Shown here: positions 3,192-23,510 of the stretch, piece after piece
Numbering within the stretch: position 1 is the first letter of the stretch
How the letters are laid out: every line of letters starts with the position of its first letter
From: Escherichia virus TH10
Strand: one strand, 5' to 3'
Sequence record: MT446388.1
Length of the DNA: 64,000 bases
Translations under genes and position numbers: made by a program
The notes under the pieces: model-generated
Database searches by the model: none
Seen by the model: the letters and a program-made list of their open reading frames with translations, nothing else
Told to the model about the DNA's origin: nothing

Positions 3192-3734
3192 ATGAAATGT
3201 TTTCACGGTACTACTCAAGAAAATTTCATCAACCTGATTAATAACGGTGATAAACCATCAGGCGCATGGAATTGTTCGGATATGGATGGCAATTTTTACG
3301 TGTATCCAGAAAATAAAATCTATGGCGACGATGATGAAGAGATAACATCGGAAGGTATTCAGCAAGCTCTAGGCAATGCCACTATTACGGCGGCCTTCCA
3401 GATGAAAACCCAAAATATTGTTATCTTAGAACTCGATATTCCAGAGGATGAGCTAAATGATGATTATTCTTGTGATAATATGTCGAGTGTAGCAAGTTTT
3501 ACAGAGTACTTTGATGTAAATTGGATTAAAAAGGTCTATACAACAGAGTTTAACGCTATGTATTCGCCTTTTTGTCTTCCTTCATTGGATAACCCAAATT
3601 TAAACTATCTTGATGAGTCTCTGGAGCTTCTTGCTAAAAGTGTTCAACAGTCGGACAGTATTCAGGTTTTTTGTGACATCATGGATACACTGACAGGAAA
3701 CATTGCAGAAGAGGATTTAAAGAGCTTTTTCTAA
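3192..3734 (+). CDS. hypothetical strongly acidic protein (180 aa)
   Basis: Asp/Glu-rich translation (DDDEE, EDELNDDY, EEDLKS); early-region location. Confidence 0.6.
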   Translation: MKCFHGTTQENFINLINNGDKPSGAWNCSDMDGNFYVYPENKIYGDDDEEITSEGIQQALGNATITAAFQMKTQNIVILELDIPEDELNDDYSCDNMSSVASFTEYFDVNWIKKVYTTEFNAMYSPFCLPSLDNPNLNYLDESLELLAKSVQQSDSIQVFCDIMDTLTGNIAEEDLKSFF

Positions 3735-3766
3735 AAACCTATGCAATCACCTTATAAACACTAATC

Positions 3767-3786
3767 AGCCCCTTGTAGGGGCTTTT
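3767..3786 (+). terminator. terminator-like hairpin
   Basis: AGCCCCT-TGT-AGGGGCT followed by TTTTAG. Confidence 0.4.
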
Positions 3787-3800
3787 AGAGGGCTTAAATC

Positions 3801-4034
3801 ATGCTTACAACCATTTACCTCATCCTTTCCATCTGTAATGGCCATTCATGTGACTTTAAAGGGCTTGAAGAGTTTACAGGAAGTAAAGAAAATGCTATTC
3901 AAGTTTGCCAGATAGCAAGGAAAGACTATCCCGCTAGTGATGATATACAATGTTACTTTAAGACAGAAGATGACGACGGAATCTATTTCGACAGTGTTGA
4001 CGGTCAATATGAAATTGTCATTGAAAAAGACTAG
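3801..4034 (+). CDS. hypothetical small protein with hydrophobic N-terminus (77 aa)
   Basis: ORF; N-terminal MLTTIYLILSIC. Confidence 0.5.
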   Translation: MLTTIYLILSICNGHSCDFKGLEEFTGSKENAIQVCQIARKDYPASDDIQCYFKTEDDDGIYFDSVDGQYEIVIEKD

Positions 4035-4126: not shown

Positions 4127-4468
4127 ATGGCTTATGTAACCGTAATTACCGATAAAGCTGGCGCATCTTGGTCAACTCAGGTTAGTGATAAGATGTCACC
4201 TATGCAGTGCCTAAAATACTTTGAACAGTGGAACAAAGGCGAGGACACAAGCCCCTTTCAAGTGATGCAGATTATCCATGTAGACAACGAAGGAAATAAA
4301 ACGACGCTGAATAGTGAGTACTATGCAAGCCGTTTTGAAACGAGAAGTAAAACAATGAAACTTTTACGTGAATCCGGTTATGCCCATATCGCCGCGTTAA
4401 TCTGGGATGACCTGCTAAAAAGTCAGCGTATCAGCTATGTAAAACCTGAAAAAATATTCATCAGTTAA
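4127..4468 (+). CDS. hypothetical early protein (113 aa)
   Basis: ORF after cassette. Confidence 0.55.
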   Translation: MAYVTVITDKAGASWSTQVSDKMSPMQCLKYFEQWNKGEDTSPFQVMQIIHVDNEGNKTTLNSEYYASRFETRSKTMKLLRESGYAHIAALIWDDLLKSQRISYVKPEKIFIS

Positions 4469-4635
4469 TCAATAACTTACAAAAAACTTTTAAAAAGTGT
4501 TGACAATACCCCTTGACATTGGTAACTTTGTTCGAGGGGGTTTATCTAAAAGGGATTAACTTAAAAGATTCTTTATAGATAAGCTTAAAAAATTGCTTGC
4601 AATCAGCTATCAAAACAAGTAAATTACTAATCAAC

Positions 4636-4653
4636 GGGAGGGATGACCTCCCC
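4636..4653 (+). promoter_or_regulatory. leader stem-loop, family A variant
   Basis: GGGAGGG-ATGA-CCTCCCC; upstream TTGCAA..TAAATT promoter-like hexamers. Confidence 0.45.
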
Positions 4654-4685
4654 ACTAAATAAAGTCCTAAACTGGAGATTCTAAA

Positions 4686-7559: not shown

Positions 7560-8153
7560 TTAAATCAGTGTTTCCAGAACTGTTTTTAGTGATGACTTGG
7601 TTGTCTGATAAAAATGAGTAAAGCCATTGTTGTTATCAAATACCTGCATCATGATATCATCTCCCTTGATTGGGTACACTCGGATATCATAGTGAAAACC
7701 ATTAAAGACACAAGAGCCATTACAGAATGCACTAAAGTCATCAACTGAGATATACTCTTCATGTCCTGTGATTTTTATACAAACACCTTTACTCGGTCTC
7801 TTAGGGTTGATATCTTCCATCACAGACATATTCTGCCCACCAAGAGATACCATAGTGACCACTTTACGGTTCTTCTGCCTAAAGTACATCTTAACTTTCT
7901 GTAAAGTGTCTTCATAGAACGGATAAGACCTTTCTACAAAGATTCCTTCAAGTGGCTCTTTACCATTTTCAACCTCTCTGTTATGCCGTACTGCAAAGAT
8001 AATTTGTTCGAACCAGTCAAGATTTTCTTCGGAGAGTGCTTCCCGAACATCCTTCCAGTCAAGTACTAAGTAGTTACCTTCAACTTCTTTTAAGTTATCT
8101 TTTTCCATATCTATCACACCATTATCGTAAAACTTGGTAGGCTGGTACTGCAA
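7560..8153 (-). CDS. hypothetical protein (197 aa)
   Basis: ORF; start may be internal Met at 8108. Confidence 0.55.
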   Translation of the reverse strand: MQYQPTKFYDNGVIDMEKDNLKEVEGNYLVLDWKDVREALSEENLDWFEQIIFAVRHNREVENGKEPLEGIFVERSYPFYEDTLQKVKMYFRQKNRKVVTMVSLGGQNMSVMEDINPKRPSKGVCIKITGHEEYISVDDFSAFCNGSCVFNGFHYDIRVYPIKGDDIMMQVFDNNNGFTHFYQTTKSSLKTVLETLI

Positions 8154-8586
8154 ACTTGTTGCTGTTGTTCTTAATAAGGTCTTCTTCTGTTACTAAGAAT
8201 GTAATCCCACATAAGTGCGTATAGTGGCTGTCATACTCAAATATTTTAAGTAGGTATTTACCATCATGGTAGACAGATTCTACTACACCTTTTGCAACAA
8301 TCTTTCCAGTCTTGAAGTCTTTAAGACGGTACACATTACCAACTTTAGGGACTGTTTTCACTTCAGGTTCTTTTAGCTTTTCGCCAGCTTCTACATCACC
8401 TAGCAAGTGAGAACTTTCAAACGCTACATATTGCATATAAGCTTCTGAGCATTCCCAGATAAAACAATGTACAAGAACCTTAGCAGCATGTCTTGAGCAA
8501 TTCAACTTATCACAAATTTCTGTGTACATCTCATCTTTAGTTGAGTTGTTAAGCATTGCTTTTTGAACTACTTCTTTAATTTTCAT
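8122..8586 (-). CDS. hypothetical protein (154 aa)
   Basis: ORF in co-directional block. Confidence 0.55.
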   Translation of the reverse strand: MKIKEVVQKAMLNNSTKDEMYTEICDKLNCSRHAAKVLVHCFIWECSEAYMQYVAFESSHLLGDVEAGEKLKEPEVKTVPKVGNVYRLKDFKTGKIVAKGVVESVYHDGKYLLKIFEYDSHYTHLCGITFLVTEEDLIKNNSNKFAVPAYQVLR

Positions 8587-10691: not shown

Positions 10692-11273
10692 TCAAGAGTA
10701 TTTTTTAGGCAGTAATGCACTGCGCTTGTTACTCTCTTCACTCAATAGTGCAATGAAATCATCACTTTTACCTTTCCACGGGCTGAATGAAGGGATATGC
10801 TCACGAATGGCTTCAATCACCGTTTTCAGTGCTGTATTTTTCATCCACCAATCAGAATCTGCTGATGCTACCACGTAGTATCCACCGTCATCAGTTAAAA
10901 TTGGCTCTGAAATACATGGTGAAATCAAAGTGGTGATGATTGAACCATTGTTCATGTAGTATGTTCGTTTCATAACCTTTTCAAGAAGCTTGTGAAGGTC
11001 ACCAAACAGTGTTACAAGTTCTTTGTGGTCAATGTCTTTTTCAAGATTTGCACGATACTTCAACAAAGCTGCATCAACTTCTCTGTCATTGAACTTGAAA
11101 TATTGAACTTCTTCAACAAGGCAAACACTGATATTGTTGACATTCATAGTTAACTTACAAACTTTTACGGGAGAGTTAATACTTGGTTGAAAAAGTGCAA
11201 TACACCCTTCAATATTTCCAAAATGTTGTACCAATGTTACTTGTGGAGTGATATTCTGTTGCTCTTCGGACAT
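10692..11273 (-). CDS. hypothetical protein (193 aa)
   Basis: ORF. Confidence 0.55.
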   Translation of the reverse strand: MSEEQQNITPQVTLVQHFGNIEGCIALFQPSINSPVKVCKLTMNVNNISVCLVEEVQYFKFNDREVDAALLKYRANLEKDIDHKELVTLFGDLHKLLEKVMKRTYYMNNGSIITTLISPCISEPILTDDGGYYVVASADSDWWMKNTALKTVIEAIREHIPSFSPWKGKSDDFIALLSEESNKRSALLPKKYS

Positions 11274-11617
11274 TACAGTTTCCTCATTAAATACTTTTTA
11301 AGTTGTGTGTTAGGTTTCTCAAAAACTTCTATAGAAGATATCTTGACAGATTCACCACGCATACCTGTATGCTTGAATATATAGTACTCTAACATTCCTA
11401 TATACTTTGCTGGTAAGTCATGTTTGACATACACTGTTACAGAATCTTCAAATTCAACAACCTTTGTACCATCTTTGTAGTTAAACTCTTTAGGATGGTT
11501 GTAGTTGTCTATGTCATACATTAAAAAGAGTCTTTTACGTTGTAAATCAAGCTTATTTGTTAAAGACTCTTTAATATCTGAGAAGTTTTTGTACACTGTG
11601 ACATGGAGCTTACTCAT
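11273..11617 (-). CDS. hypothetical protein (114 aa)
   Basis: ORF; stop/start overlap with neighbours. Confidence 0.55.
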   Translation of the reverse strand: MSKLHVTVYKNFSDIKESLTNKLDLQRKRLFLMYDIDNYNHPKEFNYKDGTKVVEFEDSVTVYVKHDLPAKYIGMLEYYIFKHTGMRGESVKISSIEVFEKPNTQLKKYLMRKL

Positions 11618-11903
11618 CGTTAAACTCTCTGACGAAGAAATAGTTGACTTTATTATTACCTACCATAAGGTCAAAGCAGGTATTCTCAAAAGGTTTGTTG
11701 TAGGCATCGTATGAAGTGTACGTATCAGCTACTTGTTTAGTGTTGAGCTTTTTACTTGATGGGTTTAAGAGGCCACCATACAGTTTCTTGATAGCCTCTT
11801 CTACAACAGACCAGATGATTTCGTCAGTAATTTCTTCGTACAGGTCAAGTTCACGCTCTAGTGAGAAGTCACAAATTGGGAAAATAACCTGTACTTTACT
11901 CAT
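11610..11903 (-). CDS. hypothetical protein (97 aa)
   Basis: ORF. Confidence 0.5.
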   Translation of the reverse strand: MSKVQVIFPICDFSLERELDLYEEITDEIIWSVVEEAIKKLYGGLLNPSSKKLNTKQVADTYTSYDAYNKPFENTCFDLMVGNNKVNYFFVREFNDE

Positions 11904-16345: not shown

Positions 16346-16357
16346 TTTTAAAAGGTG

Positions 16358-16387
16358 TTGACAGACTCTACAAAGTTGCTCTATAGT
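16358..16387 (+). promoter_or_regulatory. sigma70-like promoter (TTGACA-18-TATAGT)
   Basis: hexamers upstream of 16427 gene, A/T-rich UP region. Confidence 0.55.
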
Positions 16388-16426
16388 CTGTCACATCAAA
16401 CAACAAATGAGAGAAGAGAGTAAAAT

Positions 16427-17842
16427 ATGAGCGAATTATTTAAACATGCGCACCTTCATGCAGGTCGAACTGAAAATGGTGCTGTAAACCATACTTCATC
16501 AATGTCTGCTCTTGTAGACTTTTACAAAGCTGCTGGTTCTAGCCGTAGCAATGTAGAAATCTTACCAGACTTGTTCTACAAAGCTTTGCATGAGGATGTT
16601 GATGTTGCAGTTCGTATTTTACTGCATATGCGAGATGTACGAGAAGGTATGGGTGAGCGTAAAGCTTTCCGAACTGTTTTACTTCAAGCAATTGAAGATA
16701 AGATTTTAGAGCCTACACAGGTTCTTCGCATTATGGATAAGATTGCAGAGCTTGGTCGTTTTGATGACTTCAAAATCTTCGTCGGTACTCGTTTCGAAAC
16801 AGATGCCTTCAAACATTTAGAAGCTGCATTACTAGACCCTGCAACAGCAGGTTTGGCAGCCAAGTGGTTACCACGAGTCAAACCACGCCATAAGCATTTT
16901 GTAAAACGTTTCTGCAAGTTTGCAAACTTAAGTGAGAAAGAGTACCGCACACTGTTGTCTGCACTATCTGATACAGTTGAGCAAAAAATCTCTGCTAATG
17001 AGTTTGGTAAGATTGACTACAGTAAGATTCCTTCACTTGCTGCTGCACGTTACCAAAAACTGTTTAACCGTAAAGATGGAGAGCGCTACAAAGCTTACAT
17101 CGAGTCATTATCAAAGGGTGAGGCTAAGATTAATGCTGGTGCTGTTTACCCATACGATGTGATTAAATCTGTTAAGTATGGTAATGCAGATGTTGCTAAT
17201 GAGCAGTGGAAAGCACTACCAAACTGGATGGCAGAGGGTGAAAACATTCTATGTATGTCTGATGTTTCAAGTTCAATGTCTTGGGTGAATTTTGGCTCAA
17301 TTACTGCCCTTGATATTGGTGTATCACTTGCCTTGTATGTAGCAGAACGCAATACAGGTTGCTTTAAGAACGAGTTAATGGTTTATTCAACAAACCCTCA
17401 TTTCATCGAACTGAGTGGCGATTTAAAGAACCGTCACCGTCAGGTAATGCGACATGTTGAATACGGTTCAACTAACTTACAAGCAGCTTTTGACCGCATC
17501 CTTGAGACAGGTAAGAGAAACAACTTGACTCAGAAAGATATGCCAAGTAAGCTTATCATCTTCTCTGATATGGAGTTCAATCAGGTTGACGGTGCAAATG
17601 GTCGTACAAACTTTGAAGCAATTCAGAGTAAGTACAAAAAAGCTGGATATGAGATGCCACAACTGGTATTCTGGTACTTAGCAAACCGTAATGGTACTTG
17701 CGAAGTATCTGTTAAGGATAACGGTGTAGCAATGGTATCTGGTTTCTCTCCAGCCACTTTAAAAGCTCTGCTTGGTGGTGAGAAGTTTGACCCAATCAGT
17801 GTAATGCTCAAAGCAGTAATGATTGACCGTTATATCTGGTAA
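16427..17842 (+). CDS. vWA-domain protein with Ro60 (TROVE+vWA)-like architecture (471 aa)
   Basis: C-terminal MIDAS motif D-V-S-S-S (LCMSDVSSSMSW) and later FSDME typical of vWA; about 270-aa helical N-terminal domain; sits immediately 5' of the tRNA/Y-RNA-like array. Confidence 0.6.
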   Translation: MSELFKHAHLHAGRTENGAVNHTSSMSALVDFYKAAGSSRSNVEILPDLFYKALHEDVDVAVRILLHMRDVREGMGERKAFRTVLLQAIEDKILEPTQVLRIMDKIAELGRFDDFKIFVGTRFETDAFKHLEAALLDPATAGLAAKWLPRVKPRHKHFVKRFCKFANLSEKEYRTLLSALSDTVEQKISANEFGKIDYSKIPSLAAARYQKLFNRKDGERYKAYIESLSKGEAKINAGAVYPYDVIKSVKYGNADVANEQWKALPNWMAEGENILCMSDVSSSMSWVNFGSITALDIGVSLALYVAERNTGCFKNELMVYSTNPHFIELSGDLKNRHRQVMRHVEYGSTNLQAAFDRILETGKRNNLTQKDMPSKLIIFSDMEFNQVDGANGRTNFEAIQSKYKKAGYEMPQLVFWYLANRNGTCEVSVKDNGVAMVSGFSPATLKALLGGEKFDPISVMLKAVMIDRYIW

Positions 17843-17860
17843 AAAGTTTTAAAAAGGGTA

Positions 17861-17889
17861 TTGACAATGTGTTTAATACCCTTTAATAT
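17861..17889 (+). promoter_or_regulatory. sigma70-like promoter (TTGACA-17-TAATAT)
   Basis: hexamers between the vWA gene and tRNA array. Confidence 0.5.
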
Positions 17890-17951
17890 GTTCTACATAG
17901 AAACGAAATGAGAGCTTTTCTAAGATACTGAAAAATATTTTAAAAAAGTTC

Positions 17952-17980
17952 TTGACAATCACTAAAAAATAATGTTAAAG
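17952..17980 (+). promoter_or_regulatory. possible promoter (TTGACA .. TTAAAG)
   Basis: -35 good, -10 weak; about 30 nt upstream of first tRNA. Confidence 0.35.
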
Positions 17981-18007
17981 TGGTTACATAGAGTTTGAAA
18001 AGTTTAT

Positions 18008-18084
18008 CTCTGTTTAGCTCAGCTTGGTAGAGCGTTCCGTTTGGGGCGGTAAGGCCGGAGGTTCAAGTCCTCCAACAGAGACCA
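18008..18084 (+). tRNA. tRNA-Pro (UGG)
   Basis: 7-bp acceptor CTCTGTT/AACAGAG, T-arm GGAGG-TTCAAGT-CCTCC, loop ttTGGgg, encoded CCA. Confidence 0.75.
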
Positions 18085-18091
18085 AATTAAT

Positions 18092-18169
18092 GTTCCAGTA
18101 GACAAAATGGTAAAGTCACCACTCTTTCAAAGTGGATATCTGAGGGTTCAAATCCCTTCTGGAACGCCA
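18092..18169 (+). tRNA. tRNA-Glu (UUC)
   Basis: acceptor GTTCCAG/CTGGAAC, anticodon stem CCACT/AGTGG, loop ctTTCaa, CCA. Confidence 0.8.
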
Positions 18170-18176
18170 GTTTTGA

Positions 18177-18248
18177 CAGAAGACCAATTACAGCAAACTT
18201 AATCTACTCATCTGAAAGTTAATCGGACAAAGAAGATATTTGGTCTGG
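18177..18248 (+). ncRNA. structured element 1 (CAGAAGACC..GGTCTGG helix)
   Basis: 5' CAGAAGACCAA pairs with 3' TTGGTCTGG; no ORF; one of 4 copies with compensatory changes. Confidence 0.4.
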
Positions 18249-18259
18249 TCATTAAGAAT

Positions 18260-18336
18260 TGCGGGTATAGAGAAAGGGCGTCTCACATGTCTCATTAGCA
18301 TGGTATCGGCAGGTTCGACTCCTGCACCCGCCTCCA
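18260..18336 (+). tRNA. tRNA with CAU anticodon (Met or Ile2), atypical
   Basis: T-arm GCAGG-TTCGACT-CCTGC, acceptor with 1-72 mismatch, loop ctCATta, CCA; irregular D arm and 6-nt variable region. Confidence 0.55.
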
Positions 18337-18342
18337 ATTTTG

Positions 18343-18401
18343 CAGAAGACCGTATTCAGCAACAAAATACTTTTTGCGGATAAAAGAAAAACACGGTCTG
18401 G
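18343..18401 (+). ncRNA. structured element 2 (CAGAAGACC..GGTCTGG helix)
   Basis: 5' CAGAAGACCGT pairs with 3' ACGGTCTGG. Confidence 0.4.
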
Positions 18402-18412
18402 CAATGTATTAA

Positions 18413-18489
18413 GGTTAGGAAGCACATAAGGTATGTGCGGTCGCCTGTTAAGCGAATGGCACAGGGTTCGAATCCCTGACTAACCGCCA
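18413..18489 (+). tRNA. tRNA-Asn (GUU)
   Basis: T-arm CAGGG-TTCGAAT-CCCTG, D-stem GCAC/GTGC, loop ctGTTaa, CCA. Confidence 0.75.
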
Positions 18490-18497
18490 AATTAAAT

Positions 18498-18585
18498 GTG
18501 TCGTTATCCCGTAGATGGTAGCGGTGGGGACTGTAAATCCCTTGTCATTGAGACTCGGTAGGTTCGACTCCTACACGGCACACCA
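18498..18585 (+). tRNA. tRNA-Tyr (GUA), type II
   Basis: acceptor GTGTCGT/ACGGCAC, anticodon stem GGGGA/TCCCT, loop ctGTAaa, long variable arm, T-arm GTAGG-TTCGACT-CCTAC, CCA. Confidence 0.8.
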
Positions 18586-18590
18586 ATAAA

Positions 18591-18667
18591 GGCTATGTAG
18601 TTTAACTGGAGAAAATACTCCCCTGTCACGGGAGATGATGTGAGTTCAAGTCTCATCGTAGCCGCCA
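18591..18667 (+). tRNA. tRNA-Asp (GUC)
   Basis: acceptor GGCTATG/CGTAGCC, anticodon stem CTCCC/GGGAG, loop ctGTCac, CCA. Confidence 0.8.
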
Positions 18668-18728
18668 ATTTTGAGAGGGCTATTTAGCCCCTCCCTTAAA
18701 GAGTTCTTACGAGTATTCTTTAAAGGAG

Positions 18729-18804
18729 CAGAAGACCAAATACAGCAAGAACGTATGAAAATTTCAAGCCAATTTAATTTTGAAAAATTTAAAACTTGGT
18801 CTGG
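18729..18804 (+). ncRNA. structured element 3 (CAGAAGACC..GGTCTGG helix)
   Basis: 5' CAGAAGACCAA pairs with 3' TTGGTCTGG; interior A/T-rich. Confidence 0.4.
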
Positions 18805-18817
18805 CTCAACAAATTTA

Positions 18818-18948
18818 CAGAAGACCGTTTACAGCAAAACTTAAACAATCTATTTCTCGGTAAAGAAAAGGCGAAGGTTCGATTCCTTCACTCGGCAGAT
18901 GTCGAGTTGGTGTAATGGTAGCACTTAAGATGATAAACAACGGTCTGG
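18818..18948 (+). ncRNA. candidate Y-RNA-like RNA: permuted tRNA-like module closed by terminal helix
   Basis: order is helix strand (CAGAAGACCGTT), T-arm (GAAGG-TTCGATT-CCTTC), acceptor 3' strand ACTCGGC, 4-nt loop, acceptor 5' strand GTCGAGT (7 bp incl. one G-U), D-arm GTG-TAATGGTAG-CAC, helix strand (AACGGTCTGG). Confidence 0.5.
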
Positions 18949-19097
18949 TAATTGTCTTTGTAGATAAGTTATTAAGCTTACCTGTGAGTATGCGACCACA
19001 AAGGGTGAAAGGGTAAATTCTAGATTTAAACCCAAAAAGGCACATCGCTACAGACCTTAAGCAAGTCTGGGTAGCTTATCTACAAAGATAATTTAAT

Positions 19098-19173
19098 GGA
19101 AGTGTAGCAGAATGGTGATGCGGCAGACTTTTAATCTGACAGGCGATGGGTTCGAATCCCTCCACTTCTACCA
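19098..19173 (+). tRNA. tRNA-Lys (UUU)
   Basis: acceptor GGAAGTG/CACTTCT, anticodon stem CAGA/TCTG, loop ctTTTaa, GGGTTCGAATCCC T-arm, CCA. Confidence 0.7.
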
Positions 19174-19251
19174 AATTCACCCTTAACTGAGAAACACCTG
19201 CGCGGCTGGAAACACCCACTCAACAGTTTCTCTAACTAGGGTACTTATTCT

Positions 19252-19328
19252 GGTTCAGTCGCAGATAAGGTAATGCAAGGGTCTCATAAGCCCTATGAAT
19301 GTGGGTTCGATTCCCATCTGAACCTCCA
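19252..19328 (+). tRNA. tRNA with CAU anticodon (Met/Ile2)
   Basis: acceptor GGTTCAG/CTGAACC, anticodon stem AGGGT/GCCCT, loop ctCATaa, T-arm GTGGG-TTCGATT-CCCAT, CCA. Confidence 0.7.
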
Positions 19329-19329
19329 A

Positions 19330-19405
19330 GCTGGTATAGTTAAGAAGGTTATAACACTCCCCTGATAAGGGAACATCGGTGGTTCGATTCCACCTACCAG
19401 TACCA
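19330..19405 (+). tRNA. tRNA-Ile (GAU)
   Basis: acceptor GCTGGTA/TACCAGT, loop ctGATaa, T-arm GGTGG-TTCGATT-CCACC, CCA. Confidence 0.75.
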
Positions 19406-19420
19406 ATTTCAATAAAGTTG

Positions 19421-19449
19421 TTGACATTGAGATGTGACAGCTTTATAGT
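19421..19449 (+). promoter_or_regulatory. sigma70-like promoter (TTGACA-17-TATAGT)
   Basis: consensus hexamers inside tRNA array; followed by about 200 nt ORF-free transcript before tRNA-Arg. Confidence 0.55.
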
Positions 19450-19652
19450 AACCTTAGTTTTCGTTGCGTAGCGTCTATTTTGCAAATTTAAAATAAATGC
19501 AAACGACAATGTTTTTCTGGCAGTAGCTTGATAGGCTAAACACCAGTGAGGTCTTCCAACCCCTCATCAAAGAATTTGGCGTACTAGCCCACGGTATGAT
19601 TAATAAGGTGGGCATCTTTAAGGGCTTTCTCAGAGAGTCTTTAAAGATTAAT

Positions 19653-19729
19653 GCACCCTTAGTTCAATTGGATAGAGCAACGGTCTTCTAAATCGTTAGT
19701 TACAGGTTCGAATCCTGTAGGGTGTGCCA
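19653..19729 (+). tRNA. tRNA-Arg (UCU)
   Basis: acceptor GCACCCT/AGGGTGT, D-arm AGTTCAATTGGATAGAGC, loop ctTCTaa, T-arm ACAGG-TTCGAAT-CCTGT, CCA. Confidence 0.8.
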
Positions 19730-19877
19730 AATAGTTAGCAGATTGCTTAGACGACCTTATCGGGTCTCCGTGTAAGGAGGTGGTCTGTATCTCATGTTTT
19801 CCAGAACATGTAAATAATCTGAGAAGGGGCTTTACAGTGTTGAGATAATACGGTAAGCTTCGAATTATAGTTTTAAT

Positions 19878-19948
19878 AGGGGTGAGCTATGGCAGCAATA
19901 GAGTCTCCAAAATTCTTGATTAGAGTTCGAATCTCTACACCCCTGCCA
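19878..19948 (+). tRNA. tRNA-Trp (CCA), short
   Basis: perfect acceptor AGGGGTG/CACCCCT, T-arm TAGAG-TTCGAAT-CTCTA, loop ctCCAaa, CCA. Confidence 0.65.
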
Positions 19949-19962
19949 GAACAGGTGCTTGT

Positions 19963-20367
19963 ATGAAACTTTGTAGAAAATGTTCTCAAGAAAAGCCTTT
20001 AAGCTGCTTTCATAAAAGAGGTAATGGCTATCAGTCTGCTTGCAAAGATTGTAAAGCTAAGTACTCAGCAAAGAGATACAAAGAAGACCCTACTTATAAA
20101 GCAAAAAGAAAAGTTAGGGCAAAATATGACAAAAAGAGGAACAGAGAGTTCCTTAGTAGATATAAAAAGTTTTGCAAATGCAGAATATGTGGCGAATCTG
20201 AGCCAGTAGCTTTGGATTTTCATCACTTAGACCCTAAAGAGAAAGATTTTGCTCCAAGCAATCTTAAAACTTACTCTAGGGGCACTATTAAGCGTGAAGT
20301 CCGTAAGTGTGTTGTGCTTTGTTCAAACTGTCATAGGAAAGTTCATGCAGGACTGTTAAGTATTTAA
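19963..20367 (+). CDS. HNH endonuclease (134 aa)
   Basis: Cys-rich zinc-binding N-terminus; HNH motif DFHHLDP..N..VVLCSNCHRKVH; embedded in tRNA array. Confidence 0.8.
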   Translation: MKLCRKCSQEKPLSCFHKRGNGYQSACKDCKAKYSAKRYKEDPTYKAKRKVRAKYDKKRNREFLSRYKKFCKCRICGESEPVALDFHHLDPKEKDFAPSNLKTYSRGTIKREVRKCVVLCSNCHRKVHAGLLSI

Positions 20368-20380
20368 CAGTCTTATTAGG

Positions 20381-20468
20381 GGTAGGTAGCGGCTAATGGC
20401 AGCCAAACAGTCTTGAAAACTGTTGCCACTGTAGAGATACGGTGAGGGTTCGACTCCTTTACTTACCG
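20381..20468 (+). tRNA. tRNA-Ser (UGA), type II
   Basis: acceptor GGTAGGT/ACTTACC, anticodon stem ACAGT/ACTGT, loop ctTGAaa, long variable arm, T-loop TTCGACT; CCA not encoded. Confidence 0.75.
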
Positions 20469-20626
20469 CCTAATAAGATTTAAAGCCAAGCTTCATTCGG
20501 ATGTTGCTTTGGTATCCCTCGTGTATTGTCGTACACGCACAGTAAAACACCTAGTAGGTGTCACGGAGAAGAGATAATATCAAGCTCTCCAAAGGTTCTA
20601 GTCACCGGATTAAACAAGACTATGCA

Positions 20627-20647
20627 AAGACCTTTTTAGGTCTTTTT
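20627..20647 (+). terminator. terminator-like hairpin inside tRNA array
   Basis: AAGACC-TTTTTA-GGTCTT followed by TTTA. Confidence 0.35.
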
Positions 20648-20726
20648 AGAGGGCTTCTAAGGTTATTACAGCTTGTTGTGGAACCTTGTTGCTTAGGTTC
20701 TTAGAAGTTCTCTAAAAAGGTTTAAT

Positions 20727-20804
20727 GGGAGATTGACGGTAATTGGTAAACCTACCATCCTTAGAAGTTGGTGTTTGAGGGTTCGAATCCCTTGTCTCCT
20801 ACCA
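20727..20804 (+). tRNA. tRNA, anticodon UAG (Leu-like), short variable arm
   Basis: acceptor GGGAGAT/GTCTCCT, T-arm GAGGG-TTCGAAT-CCCTT, loop ctTAGaa, CCA; lacks type II arm. Confidence 0.6.
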
Positions 20805-20811
20805 AATTAAT

Positions 20812-20887
20812 GCAGGTGTAGCAAAATGGTTATGCGGCTGACTCTTAATCAGTAAGACGATGGGTTCAATTCCCTCCACCTGTACCA
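20812..20887 (+). tRNA. tRNA-Lys (CUU)
   Basis: acceptor GCAGGTG/CACCTGT, anticodon stem GCTGA/TCAGT, loop ctCTTaa, GGGTTCAATTCCC T-arm, CCA. Confidence 0.7.
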
Positions 20888-20893
20888 AACAAT

Positions 20894-20969
20894 GGGGATG
20901 TAGTTTACATGGTTAAAACATAAGTTTTGCAAACTTAAGTACAGGGTTCAATTCCCTGCTTCTCCACCA
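20894..20969 (+). tRNA. tRNA-Ala (UGC)
   Basis: acceptor with G3:U70 pair (Ala identity element), anticodon stem TAAGT/ACTTA, loop ttTGCaa, T-arm CAGGG-TTCAATT-CCCTG, CCA. Confidence 0.8.
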
Positions 20970-20975
20970 ATTAGT

Positions 20976-21050
20976 GCATCCATAGTTTAAACGGGAAAAT
21001 TACAGTCTTCCAAACTGAGGTTGAGGGTTCGATTCCCTCTGGATGCTCCA
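20976..21050 (+). tRNA. tRNA-Gly (UCC)
   Basis: perfect acceptor GCATCCA/TGGATGC, loop ctTCCaa, T-arm GAGGG-TTCGATT-CCCTC, CCA. Confidence 0.75.
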
Positions 21051-21056
21051 AACAAT

Positions 21057-21133
21057 GCTGCTTTCGTATAATTGGCTATTACACATCCCTTGTAAGGATG
21101 GAAATGCAGGTTCGAGTCCTGTGAGCAGCACCA
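21057..21133 (+). tRNA. tRNA-Thr (UGU)
   Basis: acceptor GCTGCTT/GAGCAGC, anticodon stem CATCC/GGATG, loop ctTGTaa, T-loop TTCGAGT, CCA. Confidence 0.8.
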
Positions 21134-21137
21134 ATTC

Positions 21138-21226
21138 AGAGGTCAAGTGAAAGACCGCTTTGAGTCAACTGAAGACCGTAACAAATTCCACGGAGTTGAG
21201 TTAGCGGCACAACTCCAGACCTCTTT
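21138..21226 (+). ncRNA. structured ORF-free element (nested inverted repeats)
   Basis: outer AGAGGTC..GACCTCT and inner GGAGTTG..CAACTCC inverted repeats; contains GAAGACCG motif. Confidence 0.35.
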
Positions 21227-21229
21227 CAT

Positions 21230-21304
21230 ACTCGCTTAGTTTATATGGTAAAACACCACCCTTACAAGATGAAGAAAAAGGTTCAAGTCCTTTAGTGAGT
21301 ACCA
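21230..21304 (+). tRNA. tRNA, isotype uncertain (possibly Val UAC)
   Basis: acceptor ACTCGCT/AGTGAGT, T-arm AAAGG-TTCAAGT-CCTTT, CCA; anticodon stem poorly paired. Confidence 0.55.
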
Positions 21305-21305
21305 T

Positions 21306-21383
21306 GTTCCAGTATCCCAATTGGCAGAGGATGCAAGCTCAAACCTTGTACTAGTGACGGTTCGAATCCGTCTTGGAACACCA
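21306..21383 (+). tRNA. tRNA, anticodon CAA (Leu-like), short variable arm
   Basis: acceptor GTTCCAG/TTGGAAC, anticodon stem GCAAG/CTTGT, loop ctCAAac, T-arm GACGG-TTCGAAT-CCGTC, CCA. Confidence 0.6.
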
Positions 21384-21399
21384 ATTTTAGGAGAACACT

Positions 21400-21507
21400 A
21401 TGAGTAATAAGTCAATTGCAAAAAAGTTTATAGCGTCATTCAAAAACAGACGTAAAAACAACTCTTGTGAAAAACTGTATGGTGTTCTTGTAGGTAAGCA
21501 GGATTAG
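21400..21507 (+). CDS. possible small basic ORF (35 aa)
   Basis: AGGAG RBS 7 nt upstream of ATG; not in ORF track (<60 aa); 3' end overlaps next tRNA by 10 nt. Confidence 0.3.
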   Translation: MSNKSIAKKFIASFKNRRKNNSCEKLYGVLVGKQD

Positions 21508-21573
21508 TTCAAATGGATAGAGCAACAGTCTACGAAGCTGTTAATAGGGGTTCGAATCCCTTATCCTGCACCA
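21498..21573 (+). tRNA. tRNA-Arg (ACG)
   Basis: perfect acceptor GCAGGAT/ATCCTGC, D-arm AGTTCAAATGGATAGAGC, loop ctACGaa, T-loop TTCGAAT, CCA. Confidence 0.8.
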
Positions 21574-21592
21574 ATTTAAAGAGGCTATTTAG

Positions 21593-22150
21593 ATGAGATA
21601 TTTGAAGTATGCTTCATGGATTTTCTTAGCTTTGTTAGAACCATTTGCAGCAACCCTAGCAGTCATCTTAGCACCTTTTGTAGTTCCATTCTACAGTGAG
21701 AAGAAAGGACACTTACCTTTCGGGTTCAGATGGATGGAGACATATGACAACCCAATTGATGGTGATGAAGGTCACGTTAAAAGATGGGCTAATATTAGAT
21801 GGATTGGTAAACTAGGCGTCTACATGCAAAGAGTCGGATGGCTCTGGAGAAACAAAGCTTATAACTTCTCTTACCATGTATTAGGAAGAGATGTAAAAGA
21901 TGTTACTAAGTGGAAAGGTAATATCAACGTAAGTTCTGACCCTGAAGATAATCAGACTGGTTATCTCCTAATGTGGAACAGTAATGCTTGGGGATTATTC
22001 GCCTTTATCCCATCAATTAAAGTCTTTGGTAAACAGTTTTACTGGAGAATTTATATTGGATGGAAACTAAAAAGTGTTGTCCCAGAAGAAAGAGCATTCT
22101 CAAGGGAAAGAGTTATGTTGGCATTCTTTATTCATCCACTGAGAAAGTAA
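21593..22150 (+). CDS. hypothetical membrane protein (185 aa)
   Basis: AAGAGG RBS; hydrophobic N-terminal segment; Trp-rich; embedded in tRNA array. Confidence 0.6.
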   Translation: MRYLKYASWIFLALLEPFAATLAVILAPFVVPFYSEKKGHLPFGFRWMETYDNPIDGDEGHVKRWANIRWIGKLGVYMQRVGWLWRNKAYNFSYHVLGRDVKDVTKWKGNINVSSDPEDNQTGYLLMWNSNAWGLFAFIPSIKVFGKQFYWRIYIGWKLKSVVPEERAFSRERVMLAFFIHPLRK

Positions 22151-22158
22151 AGATTTAA

Positions 22159-22234
22159 AGGGGATTAGTTTACAAGGTTAAAACCTCGGTCTTTGAAATC
22201 GAAGAAGTTGGTTCAATTCCAACATCCCCCGCCA
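22159..22234 (+). tRNA. tRNA-Gln (UUG)
   Basis: acceptor AGGGGAT/ATCCCCC (1-72 mismatch), anticodon stem TCGGT/ATCGA, loop ctTTGaa, T-arm GTTGG-TTCAATT-CCAAC, CCA. Confidence 0.7.
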
Positions 22235-22236
22235 AT

Positions 22237-22315
22237 GCTCCATTACTCCAATTGGCAGAGAGGCCAGACTTAAAATCTGTGTTATGTATCGGTTCGAATC
22301 CGATATGGAGTACCA
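22237..22315 (+). tRNA. tRNA, anticodon UAA (Leu-like), atypical variable region
   Basis: acceptor GCTCCAT/ATGGAGT, T-arm ATCGG-TTCGAAT-CCGAT, loop ctTAAaa, CCA. Confidence 0.55.
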
Positions 22316-22320
22316 AATTT

Positions 22321-22396
22321 AGCGGTATAGCATAACTGGCAATGCAGCAGTCTCTGAAGCTGTCCTATTAAGGTTCAAATCCTTATGCCGCTGCCA
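22321..22396 (+). tRNA. tRNA-Gln (CUG)
   Basis: acceptor AGCGGTA/TGCCGCT, anticodon stem GCAGT/GCTGT, loop ctCTGaa, T-arm TAAGG-TTCAAAT-CCTTA, CCA. Confidence 0.7.
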
Positions 22397-22427
22397 CTTC
22401 TAAGGATTCTTACGAGAGTCCTTAAAT

Positions 22428-22503
22428 GTGGCCTTATCATAAATGGTAATGACCCATGCTGTGAACATGGTCTATACGGGTTCAAATCCCGTAGGTCACC
22501 CCA
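22428..22503 (+). tRNA. tRNA-His (GUG)
   Basis: acceptor GTGGCCT/AGGTCAC, anticodon stem CCATG/CATGG, loop ctGTGaa, discriminator C, CCA. Confidence 0.8.
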
Positions 22504-22508
22504 ATTTA

Positions 22509-22585
22509 TAGTCCAAGTAGCTTATATGGTTAAAGCGCGTGTCTGAAAAACATGAGAAGAGGGTTCAAATCCCACTGGACTACCA
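22509..22585 (+). tRNA. tRNA-Phe (GAA)
   Basis: acceptor TAGTCCA/TGGACTA, anticodon stem CGTGT/ACATG, loop ctGAAaa, T-loop TTCAAAT. Confidence 0.7.
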
Positions 22586-22601
22586 ATTTCAAAGGTGCTT
22601 A

Positions 22602-23336
22602 ATGAAAGAGATGACAGAACAAGGTAAGGAGATTTTTAATCTCTTAAAAACTGGTAAAGGGTTTTCTAATCCCCTTATTACTGGTGCAGCAGTTCTCAGT
22701 GGAACCGTAGCTGCCTCTACATCACTTGTAAGCTCTATTAGCTCTGTAACAGACCCAACAATAAAAGATAAACTTGTTGCTGCTGGACTTACAACAGTTC
22801 TGCTTAACAGCTTTACAACGAGCCTGACAAGCACTACATCAACTACCAAAACACTGACAGATTACGGTCAAAAGTCCATTGATGAGTTTTCATCACGTAT
22901 GCAGGTAGCAAAAGGTTATTCTAATGTTATGGGTGCAGCAGGTGAACAAGTTGGCTGTACACCATTTAGTGGTATTATGGGTGTTGCTACAGAGTATGGT
23001 CAAAAAGCTATTGATACGATTAACAGTGCACTAGACGGTGTTAATGATGTATTAAGTGACTTACAAGACGCTATTGACAAAGGTCTTGATACTATTTCTG
23101 ATTTAGCTAACCAAGCTGTTAGTAAGATTAATGAAGGTATTTCGAAGATTACAGCTTATGCAGATGAAGTTGTGCAGATGATTGAAGAAGAAGCTGCCCT
23201 TATTGCAGAGTACCTTAGAACGAATATCAATGGGTTCTTAGCAGGTATCTTACCAGACTGGTTTGATGATGCTTGTAAAACTGGTGTAATTGATACTATT
23301 GCAACACCAGAAATGAAGAACGCATTACAGAAATAA
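22602..23336 (+). CDS. hypothetical Ser/Thr-rich protein (244 aa)
   Basis: ORF track 22539..23336 starts at GTG inside tRNA-Phe; trimmed to first ATG (MKEMTEQ). Confidence 0.6.
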   Translation: MKEMTEQGKEIFNLLKTGKGFSNPLITGAAVLSGTVAASTSLVSSISSVTDPTIKDKLVAAGLTTVLLNSFTTSLTSTTSTTKTLTDYGQKSIDEFSSRMQVAKGYSNVMGAAGEQVGCTPFSGIMGVATEYGQKAIDTINSALDGVNDVLSDLQDAIDKGLDTISDLANQAVSKINEGISKITAYADEVVQMIEEEAALIAEYLRTNINGFLAGILPDWFDDACKTGVIDTIATPEMKNALQK

Positions 23337-23337
23337 T

Positions 23338-23430
23338 GGAAGATTAACCCTAAAAGGTAAGGGAGCAGTTTGCTAAACTGCCAGTAGCTGAGAAATCGGT
23401 GTACCAGTTCAAGTCTGGTATCTTCCTCCA
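23338..23430 (+). tRNA. tRNA-Ser (GCU), type II
   Basis: perfect acceptor GGAAGAT/ATCTTCC, anticodon stem GCAGT/ACTGC, loop ttGCTaa, long variable arm, T-arm ACCAG-TTCAAGT-CTGGT, CCA. Confidence 0.8.
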
Positions 23431-23434
23431 ATTC

Positions 23435-23510
23435 GAATCCGTGACAGAAATGGCTATGTGCCTGTCTGCAAAACAGGTTTATAAGGGTTCAAGTCCCTTC
23501 GGATTCTCCA
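23435..23510 (+). tRNA. tRNA-Cys (GCA)
   Basis: perfect acceptor GAATCCG/CGGATTC, anticodon stem CCTGT/ACAGG, loop ctGCAaa, T-arm AAGGG-TTCAAGT-CCCTT, CCA. Confidence 0.8.

Follow-up and report, generated by a model that had tools for sequence, protein, structure and literature searches.

A phage protein with a predicted Ro60 fold and four neighboring small RNAs in Escherichia virus TH10: a probable Y-RNA-like ribonucleoprotein module

Introduction

Within the 64,000-nucleotide (nt) stretch of Escherichia virus TH10 DNA analyzed here (MT446388.1; hereafter the window), a gene for a 471-amino-acid protein at 16427..17842 (+ strand) lies just ahead of a long tRNA array. Does this protein, together with small RNAs located among the tRNA genes, form a ribonucleoprotein (RNP) of the kind that Ro60 forms with Y RNAs? 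Such particles are found in animals, some bacteria and a few phages, and their functions are poorly understood. Y RNAs, among them the tRNA-like YrlA, are encoded next to canonical Ro60 genes (Chen et al. 2014, PMC4201824), and the Ro60 protein of phage phiLo binds Y-like RNAs of that phage (PMC12135203). The original prediction for this locus, made from the sequence, proposed a Ro60-like protein beside one YrlA-like RNA. The analyses reported below indicate that the gene and four RNAs downstream of it, E1 to E4, probably constitute a phage RNP module that functions as Ro60 and Y RNAs do, with the RNAs bound by the protein.

The likeness of the protein to Ro60 is already known from a preprint and from database annotations. 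Felixounavirus genomes (KhF2, Felix O1 and many E. coli and Salmonella phages) share 96-99% identity with the region 16427-19100, and the open reading frame (ORF) is 97% identical to gp130 (bas63_0130) of phage Bas63; both are directly upstream of tRNA-Pro. Bas63 gp130 was described as structurally Ro60-like and as countering the ppl defense (PhageMaP preprint, PMC11482910). Its deletion results in small Bas63 plaques on a host with the ppl defense gene (PMC11482910). Mycobacteriophage homologs carry the annotation 'Ro-like RNA binding protein', and overexpression of one of them, LeBron gp53, has a moderate toxic effect (PMC13148394). For the Listeria phage cka15 homolog CKA15_055, HHpred gave a match to Rsr, and the protein was found in purified virions (PMC12282133).

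Results

The protein and its predicted fold

An AlphaFold2 model was computed from a 39-member protein alignment and has a predicted local distance difference test (pLDDT) score of 89 and a predicted template modeling (pTM) score of 0.88. The N-terminal part (residues ~28-263) is modeled as all-helical and forms a HEAT-like ring, and the C-terminal domain is an alpha/beta vWA domain with a MIDAS (metal ion-dependent adhesion site). When the model was compared with PDB structures by Foldseek, the 12 best matches were all Ro60 proteins aligned over the full length (E values of 1e-8 to 7e-7, template modeling scores up to 0.66), and matches to the vWA domain only began at E>1e-3. The similarity thus covers the helical ring and not the vWA domain alone. 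These full-length matches indicate that the modeled fold of the protein is that of Ro60, although its sequence family is distinct from TROVE; solved Ro60 proteins are 10-16% identical to it. The large helical N-terminal domain, the C-terminal vWA domain with its D-x-S-x-S motif and the Ro60/Rsr architecture had all been foreseen in the original prediction, and each is upheld by the model or the alignment.

Pfam assigns residues 171-264 to DUF2828 (E 2e-29) and residues 274-455 to DUF7788 (E 2e-43). In PHROGs the protein belongs to phrog_850, 'RNA-binding protein', and a search of NCBIfam gave no match. One homolog has a sub-threshold match to vWA_Ro60 (22.1 bits; cutoff 27.7). The family comprises 2827 database proteins at E<=1e-3. 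Across the 39-member alignment D279, S281, S283, T349 and D381 are invariant, the first three in the motif D279-V-S281-S-S283, so the MIDAS motif is complete. Three N-terminal motifs are also invariant: T15-x-N17-G18, D70-x-R72-x-G74-x-G76-E77-R78 and K146-W147-x-P149-R150.

The RNAs E1 to E4

ARAGORN identifies 27 + strand tRNA genes in the interval 18008-23510, and with the Rfam tRNA model the window has 24. The four RNAs lie in spacers of this array, 330-970 nt downstream of the Ro60-fold gene and on the same strand. E4, the largest (18815..18951, +), has a predicted fold with a minimum free energy (MFE) of -33.4 kcal/mol. Its two ends pair into a handle that consists of a 4-base-pair (bp) outer stem (UUAC/GUAA), an internal loop (5' AGA, 3' G) and an 8-bp helix (AGACCGUU/AACGGUCU). 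The 5' strand of the handle leads into UUA-CAGCAA, of which the CAGCAA segment is single-stranded, and then into a closing helix (CUUA/UAAG). Inside the closing helix a V hairpin is followed by a T arm (18873-18889, GAAGG-UUCGAUU-CCUUC), an acceptor hairpin (18890-18907, ACUCGGC-AGAU-GUCGAGU, 7 bp with one G-U) and a D arm (GUGU-AAUGGUA-GCAC), after which comes the 3' strand of the handle. The domain is therefore a circularly permuted tRNA-like structure. It retains the T-loop UUCGA and the D-loop GG, the elbow nucleotides needed for recognition by tRNA enzymes, and its AGAU acceptor loop is without CCA.

This is the order described for YrlA, in which V, the T arm, a closed acceptor-like stem and the D arm are enclosed by the 5'/3' helix (PMC4201824). 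The tRNA parts had been placed at 18818-18948 in the original prediction; folding recovers them exactly as listed, and only the ends had to be moved, to 18815 and 18951. The YrlA-type topology likewise stands. Neither ARAGORN nor the Rfam tRNA model calls anything at 18815-18951, where the T arm alone scores (14.9 bits), and none of the window RNAs is matched by an Rfam family.

E1, E2 and E3, which the original prediction missed while correctly picking out E4, have no tRNA-like domain. E1 (18174..18251, +; UGAC-AGA-AGACCAA-UUA-CAGCAA...UUGGUCU-G-GUCA) starts 5 nt past tRNA-Glu (end 18169) and ends 9 nt ahead of tRNA-Met (start 18260). E2 (18340..18404, +; UUGC-AGA-AGACCGU-AUU-CAGCAA...ACGGUCU-G-GCAA) starts 4 nt past that tRNA-Met (end 18336) and ends 9 nt ahead of tRNA-Asn (start 18413). 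E3 (18726..18807, +) reads GAGC-AGA-AGACCAA-AUA-CAGCAA...UUGGUCU-G-GCUC. A repeat finder grouped the 5' parts of these three RNAs (family D10), and the predicted folds of all four RNAs share the outer stem, the AGA/G internal loop and the AGACC helix. The outer stems covary among the copies (UGAC/GUCA, UUGC/GCAA, GAGC/GCUC and UUAC/GUAA).

Conservation and covariation

A scan of IMG/VR with the protein alignment provided 80 loci, referred to below by L numbers; 15 are Felixounavirus-like and 65 have proteins of only 38-47% identity. E1 to E4 are all kept in the close, Felixounavirus-like loci. There the acceptor stem of L012 and L013 is ACCCUUC/GAAGGGU, compared with ACUCGGC/GUCGAGU in the window, which is a set of compensatory changes. 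A descriptor for a T arm followed by a closed 7-bp acceptor hairpin matched 28 times on the gene strand and 0 times on the opposite strand of the window and the 80 loci. The matches include permuted tRNA-like RNAs beside distant genes (L018, L026, L040, L043/L048, L057, L071 and L075) as well as a few tandem-tRNA false positives.

Six Felixounavirus E4 sequences, and no others, went into covariance model R1. In the window it finds E1 (37.9 bits, E 2.5e-5), E2 (39.2 bits, E 1.2e-5) and E4 (155 bits), and E3 goes undetected. In distant loci it has matches that are full-length and on the gene strand, among them L018 (E 8e-10) and L057 (E 1e-9). An alignment of 26 sequences was fitted to R1, a procedure that favors the structure. 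In it, standard pairs occupy 91.8% of cells, as against 34-45% when pairing partners are slid by 1-3 columns. Both sides have changed in 29 of the 33 pairs, and double changes occur in 178 cells, as against 13-42 in the slid controls. None of 500 shuffles reached the observed covariation values. The best-supported helices are the acceptor hairpin (98.0%) and the T arm (97.6%). Both the slid controls and the asymmetry between strands speak for a real covariation signal despite the model-fitted alignment. A second model, R2, was made from 51 handles with their interiors removed; it detected only E2 (24.2 bits) and yielded nothing useful with the filters off, because real members hold inserts of 20-220 nt.

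These data bear on the most conservative reading of the locus, namely that 18815-18951 is a decayed or rearranged tRNA gene, that the other elements are chance repeats and that the protein is a generic vWA protein. Phage tRNA arrays do decay, and the T arm of E4 is the one part that scores against the tRNA model. However, the permuted arrangement and every helix persist, with compensatory changes, alongside proteins only 30-47% identical; acceptor stems that differ in sequence still pair; the descriptor has its 28:0 strand bias; the covariation data contradict decay; and the Ro60 fold covers the helical ring besides the vWA domain. We consider this reading very improbable, and a decayed tRNA gene, which had been named as a finding that would undo the original prediction, is rejected for E4 because of its compensatory changes, its preserved permutation and the strand bias.

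In several relatives NCCA follows the 3' strand of the acceptor and the loop is longer: L012 8504-8542 (GCCA), L018 5379-5509 (GCCA), L040 8155-8289 (ACCA), L057 8440-8532 (GCCA) and L075 5112-5244. Judged by sequence, these loops suggest that the RNAs arose from a permuted tRNA ending in CCA or are processed as one would be.

The handle is linked to the gene

A strict motif based on the window RNAs, N4-AGAAGAC...GTCTN-N4', had zero matches outside Felixounaviruses, and the descriptor was therefore generalized to the G-stem/CAGCA form. It requires a 6-7 bp stem starting with G, 3 nt, CAGCA(A/C), and N-G past the 3' strand. The consensus of the handles found is a 6-8 bp stem starting with G (G-R), 3 nt (usually UUA), CAGCA(A/C), and N-G (UG) after the 3' strand. 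A looser version (any stem start, gaps of 2-4 nt, no 3' G) was rejected as noisy (1330 versus 1124 matches).

On the + strand of the window the descriptor matches E1-E4 only (within 18182-18947), and shuffled windows give 0.79 +/- 0.93 matches on both strands. The 80 loci contain 156 matches on the gene strand and 4 on the opposite strand, and 62 of the loci have at least one. In the distant loci a complementary strand with NG was present at 100 of 191 motif sites, where 14.1 were expected with the 5' strand shuffled, and at 2 of 72 sites on the opposite strand. An additional flanking pair that is not part of the descriptor, between the nucleotide ahead of the stem and the one that follows it, is present in 47 of 55 distinct handles (A-U 30, U-A 11, G-C 4, G-U 2), compared with 29.1 +/- 2.9 in shuffles.

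Most handle matches (77 of 106, 73%) are within 500 nt of the gene, and 26 of the 49 handle-bearing distant loci have zero tRNA genes within 6 kb. Together these two counts indicate that the handles are linked to the gene and not to tRNA arrays. They also weigh on the possibility that the RNAs act alone, as tRNA-derived decoys or as punctuation or processing elements of the tRNA operon, and that they are close to the gene only because both belong to a shared phage 'RNA region'. The RNAs of the window are indeed embedded in the tRNA array at tRNA-like spacing, and gp130 alone counters ppl without the RNAs (PMC11482910). In opposition to this stand the tRNA-free loci, the short distances to the gene, the three handle RNAs of phage LeBron that lie right behind gp53 with no tRNA nearby, and the several lineages in which a handle overlies the translation start of the gene. 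We regard independent action of the RNAs as unlikely.

Interiors of the handle RNAs and handles in gene leaders

The handles enclose a variety of interiors, including permuted tRNA-like domains and short A-rich loops. In L018/L019 the interior has T and D arms and no acceptor hairpin. At L057 8329-8432 the handle (GGUUCC-UUU-CAGCAAA...GGAACC-UG) surrounds an unpermuted tRNA body (Rfam tRNA positions 5-66) with D, anticodon and T arms, and permuted RNAs are found in the same locus at 8432-8536, adjoining it, and at 7571-7710; tRNA bodies of either topology have thus been joined to the same handle. Handle RNAs whose conserved interior is not tRNA-like, ~165-255 nt in length, occur at L021 7472-7722, L024 5558-5813, L032 7847-8085, L042 7522-7763 and L076 7788-7953 (example segment GAUAUAGCUGCCGAGCUGAAUAA, or GAUAUUCCGCCGGGAAGAAA). 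Each of them is preceded by a small handle RNA of ~57 nt, and none has an Rfam match. In L076 the DUF2828 gene and the handle RNAs belonging to it are followed, 4 kb downstream, by a phage transfer-messenger RNA (tmRNA) at 11284-11705 (Rfam, 78.6 bits) and a tRNA cluster.

In at least 7 lineages a handle hairpin overlaps or just precedes the gene's ribosome-binding site or start codon. Minimal handles directly precede the Shine-Dalgarno sequence in L018, L022, L023, L066 and L080, and one in L038 is ~30 nt ahead of the start codon. In L016 and L017, which are KVP40-like, the AUG itself is inside the 3' strand of the handle. This is the arrangement that would be expected if the protein bound the handle and repressed its own translation.

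The same leaders favor another explanation, that the hairpins regulate in cis, as leaders, attenuators or stabilizers of the DUF2828 mRNA and of its neighbors, and are not stable trans-acting RNAs. In the window and in most loci, however, the RNAs are downstream of the gene. Those of the window are present in several copies, interleaved with tRNAs and behind separate promoter-like sites, and large conserved cargoes, whether tRNA-like or ~240 nt long, would make no sense in a leader. The two uses would moreover be compatible, as autoregulation by mimicry. A purely cis-regulatory function appears quite improbable to us.

Occurrence in other phages

The protein was detected by tblastn in 709 of 50,697 phage records, with hosts that include Escherichia (119), Mycobacterium (95), Salmonella (77), Vibrio (56), Listeria (54), Staphylococcus (42), Campylobacter (40), Enterococcus (36) and Bacillus (28), among others. 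The linkage of gene and handle is found across phages of Proteobacteria, Firmicutes and Actinobacteria.

In LeBron three handle RNAs (4429-4482, 4496-4617 and 4631-4676) directly follow gp53 and are themselves followed by a terminator-like hairpin. The middle one (4496-4617) is a permuted tRNA-like RNA. It matches the Rfam YrlA model over its full length with 39.8 bits (gathering threshold 69; E 7e-6 to 1e-7) and R1 with 33.9 bits. By these sequence scores, the LeBron RNA is a bridge between E4 and YrlA.

Listeria phage cka15 (L084, OR088597) has handle RNAs at 3623-3678, 3712-3767 and 3781-3885, with a strong promoter-like site on one side and CKA15_055, which they directly precede, on the other; a gene for an RtcB-type ligase is 1.3 kb downstream. 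Elsewhere in this phage, the region of CKA15_059-061 reportedly accounts for up to 67% of phage transcripts, and the authors speculated that it encodes a Y RNA (PMC12282133). In our searches this region (L084 2428-2979) matched the full Rfam model of ROOL RNA with 90.1 bits (gathering 99.1; E 2e-17).

Features surrounding the genes

A promoter-like site, TTGACA-18-TATAGT (16358..16387, +; 11/12 consensus matches), is upstream of the Ro-like gene, and two more (17861-17889 and 17952-17981, +) are ahead of the tRNA and small-RNA array; the latter two are consensus matches only. A 9-bp inverted repeat, TGACAGACT...AGTCTGTCA, at 16356-16396 overlaps the first site. Its arms resemble those of the E1 handle (UGAC-AGAC/GUCU-GUCA), and it may serve as an operator or, in read-through transcripts, form an RNA hairpin.

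Between E4 and tRNA-Lys a structured element (18950-19097, +) has a terminal stem of ~24 bp around a multi-helix junction (MFE -47.9 kcal/mol, z -5.9 versus shuffles) and zero Rfam matches. The terminal stem shows compensatory changes in L010/L012 (GUAG/CUAC versus GCAG/CUGC), and the element holds a mini hairpin, CAGAC-CUUAAGCAA-GUCUG-G, that is reminiscent of the handle arms. In the Bas63 record (L083, MZ501086) two minus-strand coding sequences, bas63_0137 and bas63_0138 (10749-11023), overlie E4 and this next structured RNA; they are probably spurious. The tRNA-OTHER annotations of related records are tRNA-Glu and tRNA-Tyr, and they were ruled out as counterparts of E4.

Further along the array, the spacer between tRNA-Lys and tRNA-Met (19174-19251, +) forms a stable hairpin (-21 kcal/mol, z -4.3). 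Two weak Rfam matches, one to tmRNA_permuted (19347-19531, +; 28.7 bits, E 0.002) and the other to tmRNA (19463-19652, +; 16.2 bits, E 6e-4), fall in a 247-nt spacer that opens with a promoter-like site at 19421-19449; these matches probably reflect tRNA-Ile and chance. A Cys-rich 134-amino-acid ORF inside the array (19963-20367, +) has weak matches to HNH endonucleases and is probably a homing endonuclease.

Discussion

Comparison with known Ro60 systems

The locus resembles the Salmonella rsr-yrlBA-rtcBA locus (YrlA is Rfam RF02553) in having a Ro60-fold gene beside several small RNAs on the same strand. E4 parallels YrlA in the order of its tRNA-like domain within the end helix and in its elbow nucleotides, and E1-E3, like YrlB, are smaller and have no tRNA-like domain. 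In some relatives, such as cka15 with its RtcB, an RNA-repair gene is nearby as well. Unlike Rsr, the protein belongs to Pfam DUF2828/DUF7788 and not to TROVE. Unlike YrlA, the RNAs have as their presumed protein-binding module a G-started helix with UUA-CAGCAA in place of GNCGAAN0-1G. They are also interleaved with the 27-gene tRNA array, and their cargo domains are far more varied.

Among phages, a close parallel is the Ro60-Yrl1/Yrl2 system of Thermus phage phiLo, which also combines a phage Ro60-fold protein with adjacent phage Y-like RNAs (PMC12135203). Other canonical examples come from mycobacteriophage, CcrColossus and Bacillus phage G (cited in PMC12135203), and a role in evading host defense has been proposed for these canonical phage systems (PMC12135203). 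Their proteins have TROVE domains and their RNAs a CGAA bulge, whereas the DUF2828 family has protein and RNA signatures of its own. For Bas63, the preprint offered as a guess that 'some tRNA genes are possibly Y RNAs' (PMC11482910); the RNAs described here are in contrast outside the annotated tRNAs, in the spacers. E4 also recalls circularly permuted tRNA genes and two-piece tmRNA, in which the 3' half of the acceptor leads through a linker to the 5' half, and the NCCA after the acceptor 3' strand of several relatives is a further likeness to permuted tRNA. It differs from these in its 4-nt AGAU loop, in having no CCA, no anticodon arm and no mRNA-like part, in the handle that occupies the position of the anticodon, and in giving no sign of cleavage into two pieces. 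Within the reach of Rfam 15 and of literature searches, no earlier description of the RNAs or of the handle consensus was found, and 'DUF2828' appears in the literature only in plant papers; the RNAs, the consensus and its breadth appear to be previously undescribed.

Weighing the evidence

The system would work like Ro60 with YrlA and YrlB, and yet several hallmarks of the canonical systems are missing. The profile search that was expected to identify TROVE returned DUF2828 and DUF7788 only, with no TROVE match at E<1, and searches of PDB sequences with phmmer and with a 39-sequence profile gave zero Ro60 chains at E<10. The RNAs of the window score nothing against the YrlA model (gathering 69 bits): covariance searches with the Rfam Y_RNA and YrlA models had zero matches in the window and in 166 nt around E4, at gathering or at E<10, and 11 distant loci were likewise searched. 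The GNCGAAN0-1G/CGAA motif is absent from the family; Felixounaviruses have no more than a similar C-AGAAG, with one extra A, and distant relatives lack even that. Thus both halves of the original prediction, a Ro60-like protein and a YrlA-like RNA, are supported, and the links to TROVE sequence, to Rfam and to the CGAA-type motif that would have tied them to the canonical family fail. Three further observations count against a Ro60/Y RNA-like function: 18 of the 80 loci have no match to the handle descriptor used; many relatives are without a tRNA-like cargo, so that tRNA mimicry is not the core function; and gp130 by itself, supplied from a plasmid or by insertion into T7, enables T7 to grow on a host with ppl (PMC11482910), so the RNAs are not needed for the anti-ppl activity.

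A Y-RNA-like RNP system of a new subtype nevertheless remains the most likely interpretation, because of the predicted Ro60 fold, the rule that Ro60 genes lie beside Y RNAs (PMC4201824), the RNA binding of phiLo Ro60 (PMC12135203), and the data on linkage and leaders; in such a system the protein would bind the RNAs.

Proposed mechanism

We infer the processing of the RNAs, the role of the tRNA-like domain and any anti-defense role of the RNAs as follows. The protein would form a ring of the Ro60 type, in which the vWA/MIDAS domain closes a toroid of helical repeats. E1-E4 would be transcribed together with the tRNA array and probably released by tRNA-processing enzymes that cut the flanking tRNAs. 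The handle formed by the 5' and 3' ends of each RNA is the proposed protein-binding site, which in this phage would additionally include the AGA/G internal loop and the 4-bp outer stem. The variable interior may serve as a cargo or effector module. In E4 this cargo would be a mimic of the tRNA elbow, with T and D arms and a closed acceptor stem, and could attract tRNA-recognizing enzymes or tRNA-directed defense factors. The RNP may be employed in the conflict between phage and host over RNA. Such a role is probable because of the ppl phenotype of the 97%-identical Bas63 protein.

A wider reading is possible, and we offer it tentatively: proteins with DUF2828/DUF7788 and RNAs with the CAGCAA handle may constitute a large, unrecognized class of phage RNPs parallel to Ro60-Y RNA. 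One binding handle would then be fused to exchangeable cargoes (a tRNA mimic in permuted order, a tRNA body that is unpermuted, domains of ~240 nt and bare A-rich loops). The protein would control its own synthesis by way of a handle in the leader of its mRNA, and the RNP would serve as a programmable decoy or adaptor to counter host immunity directed at RNA or tRNA; some cargoes may be cut to expose a CCA end.

Implications

Candidate RNA partners have been identified for a second, sequence-distinct family of Ro60-fold proteins. Sequenced phages with the protein number ~700 and infect Gram-negative, Gram-positive and actinobacterial hosts, and one member of the family defeats a bacterial defense system. 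The analysis also flags mis-annotated 'hypothetical' coding sequences in phage tRNA regions, such as bas63_0137/0138. The short RNA sequences and a consensus for the putative binding module are now concrete, and can be mutated and tested. The exchange of interiors among relatives amounts to a set of natural cargo swaps, with which the targeting of a Ro-type ring by Y-like RNAs can be studied.

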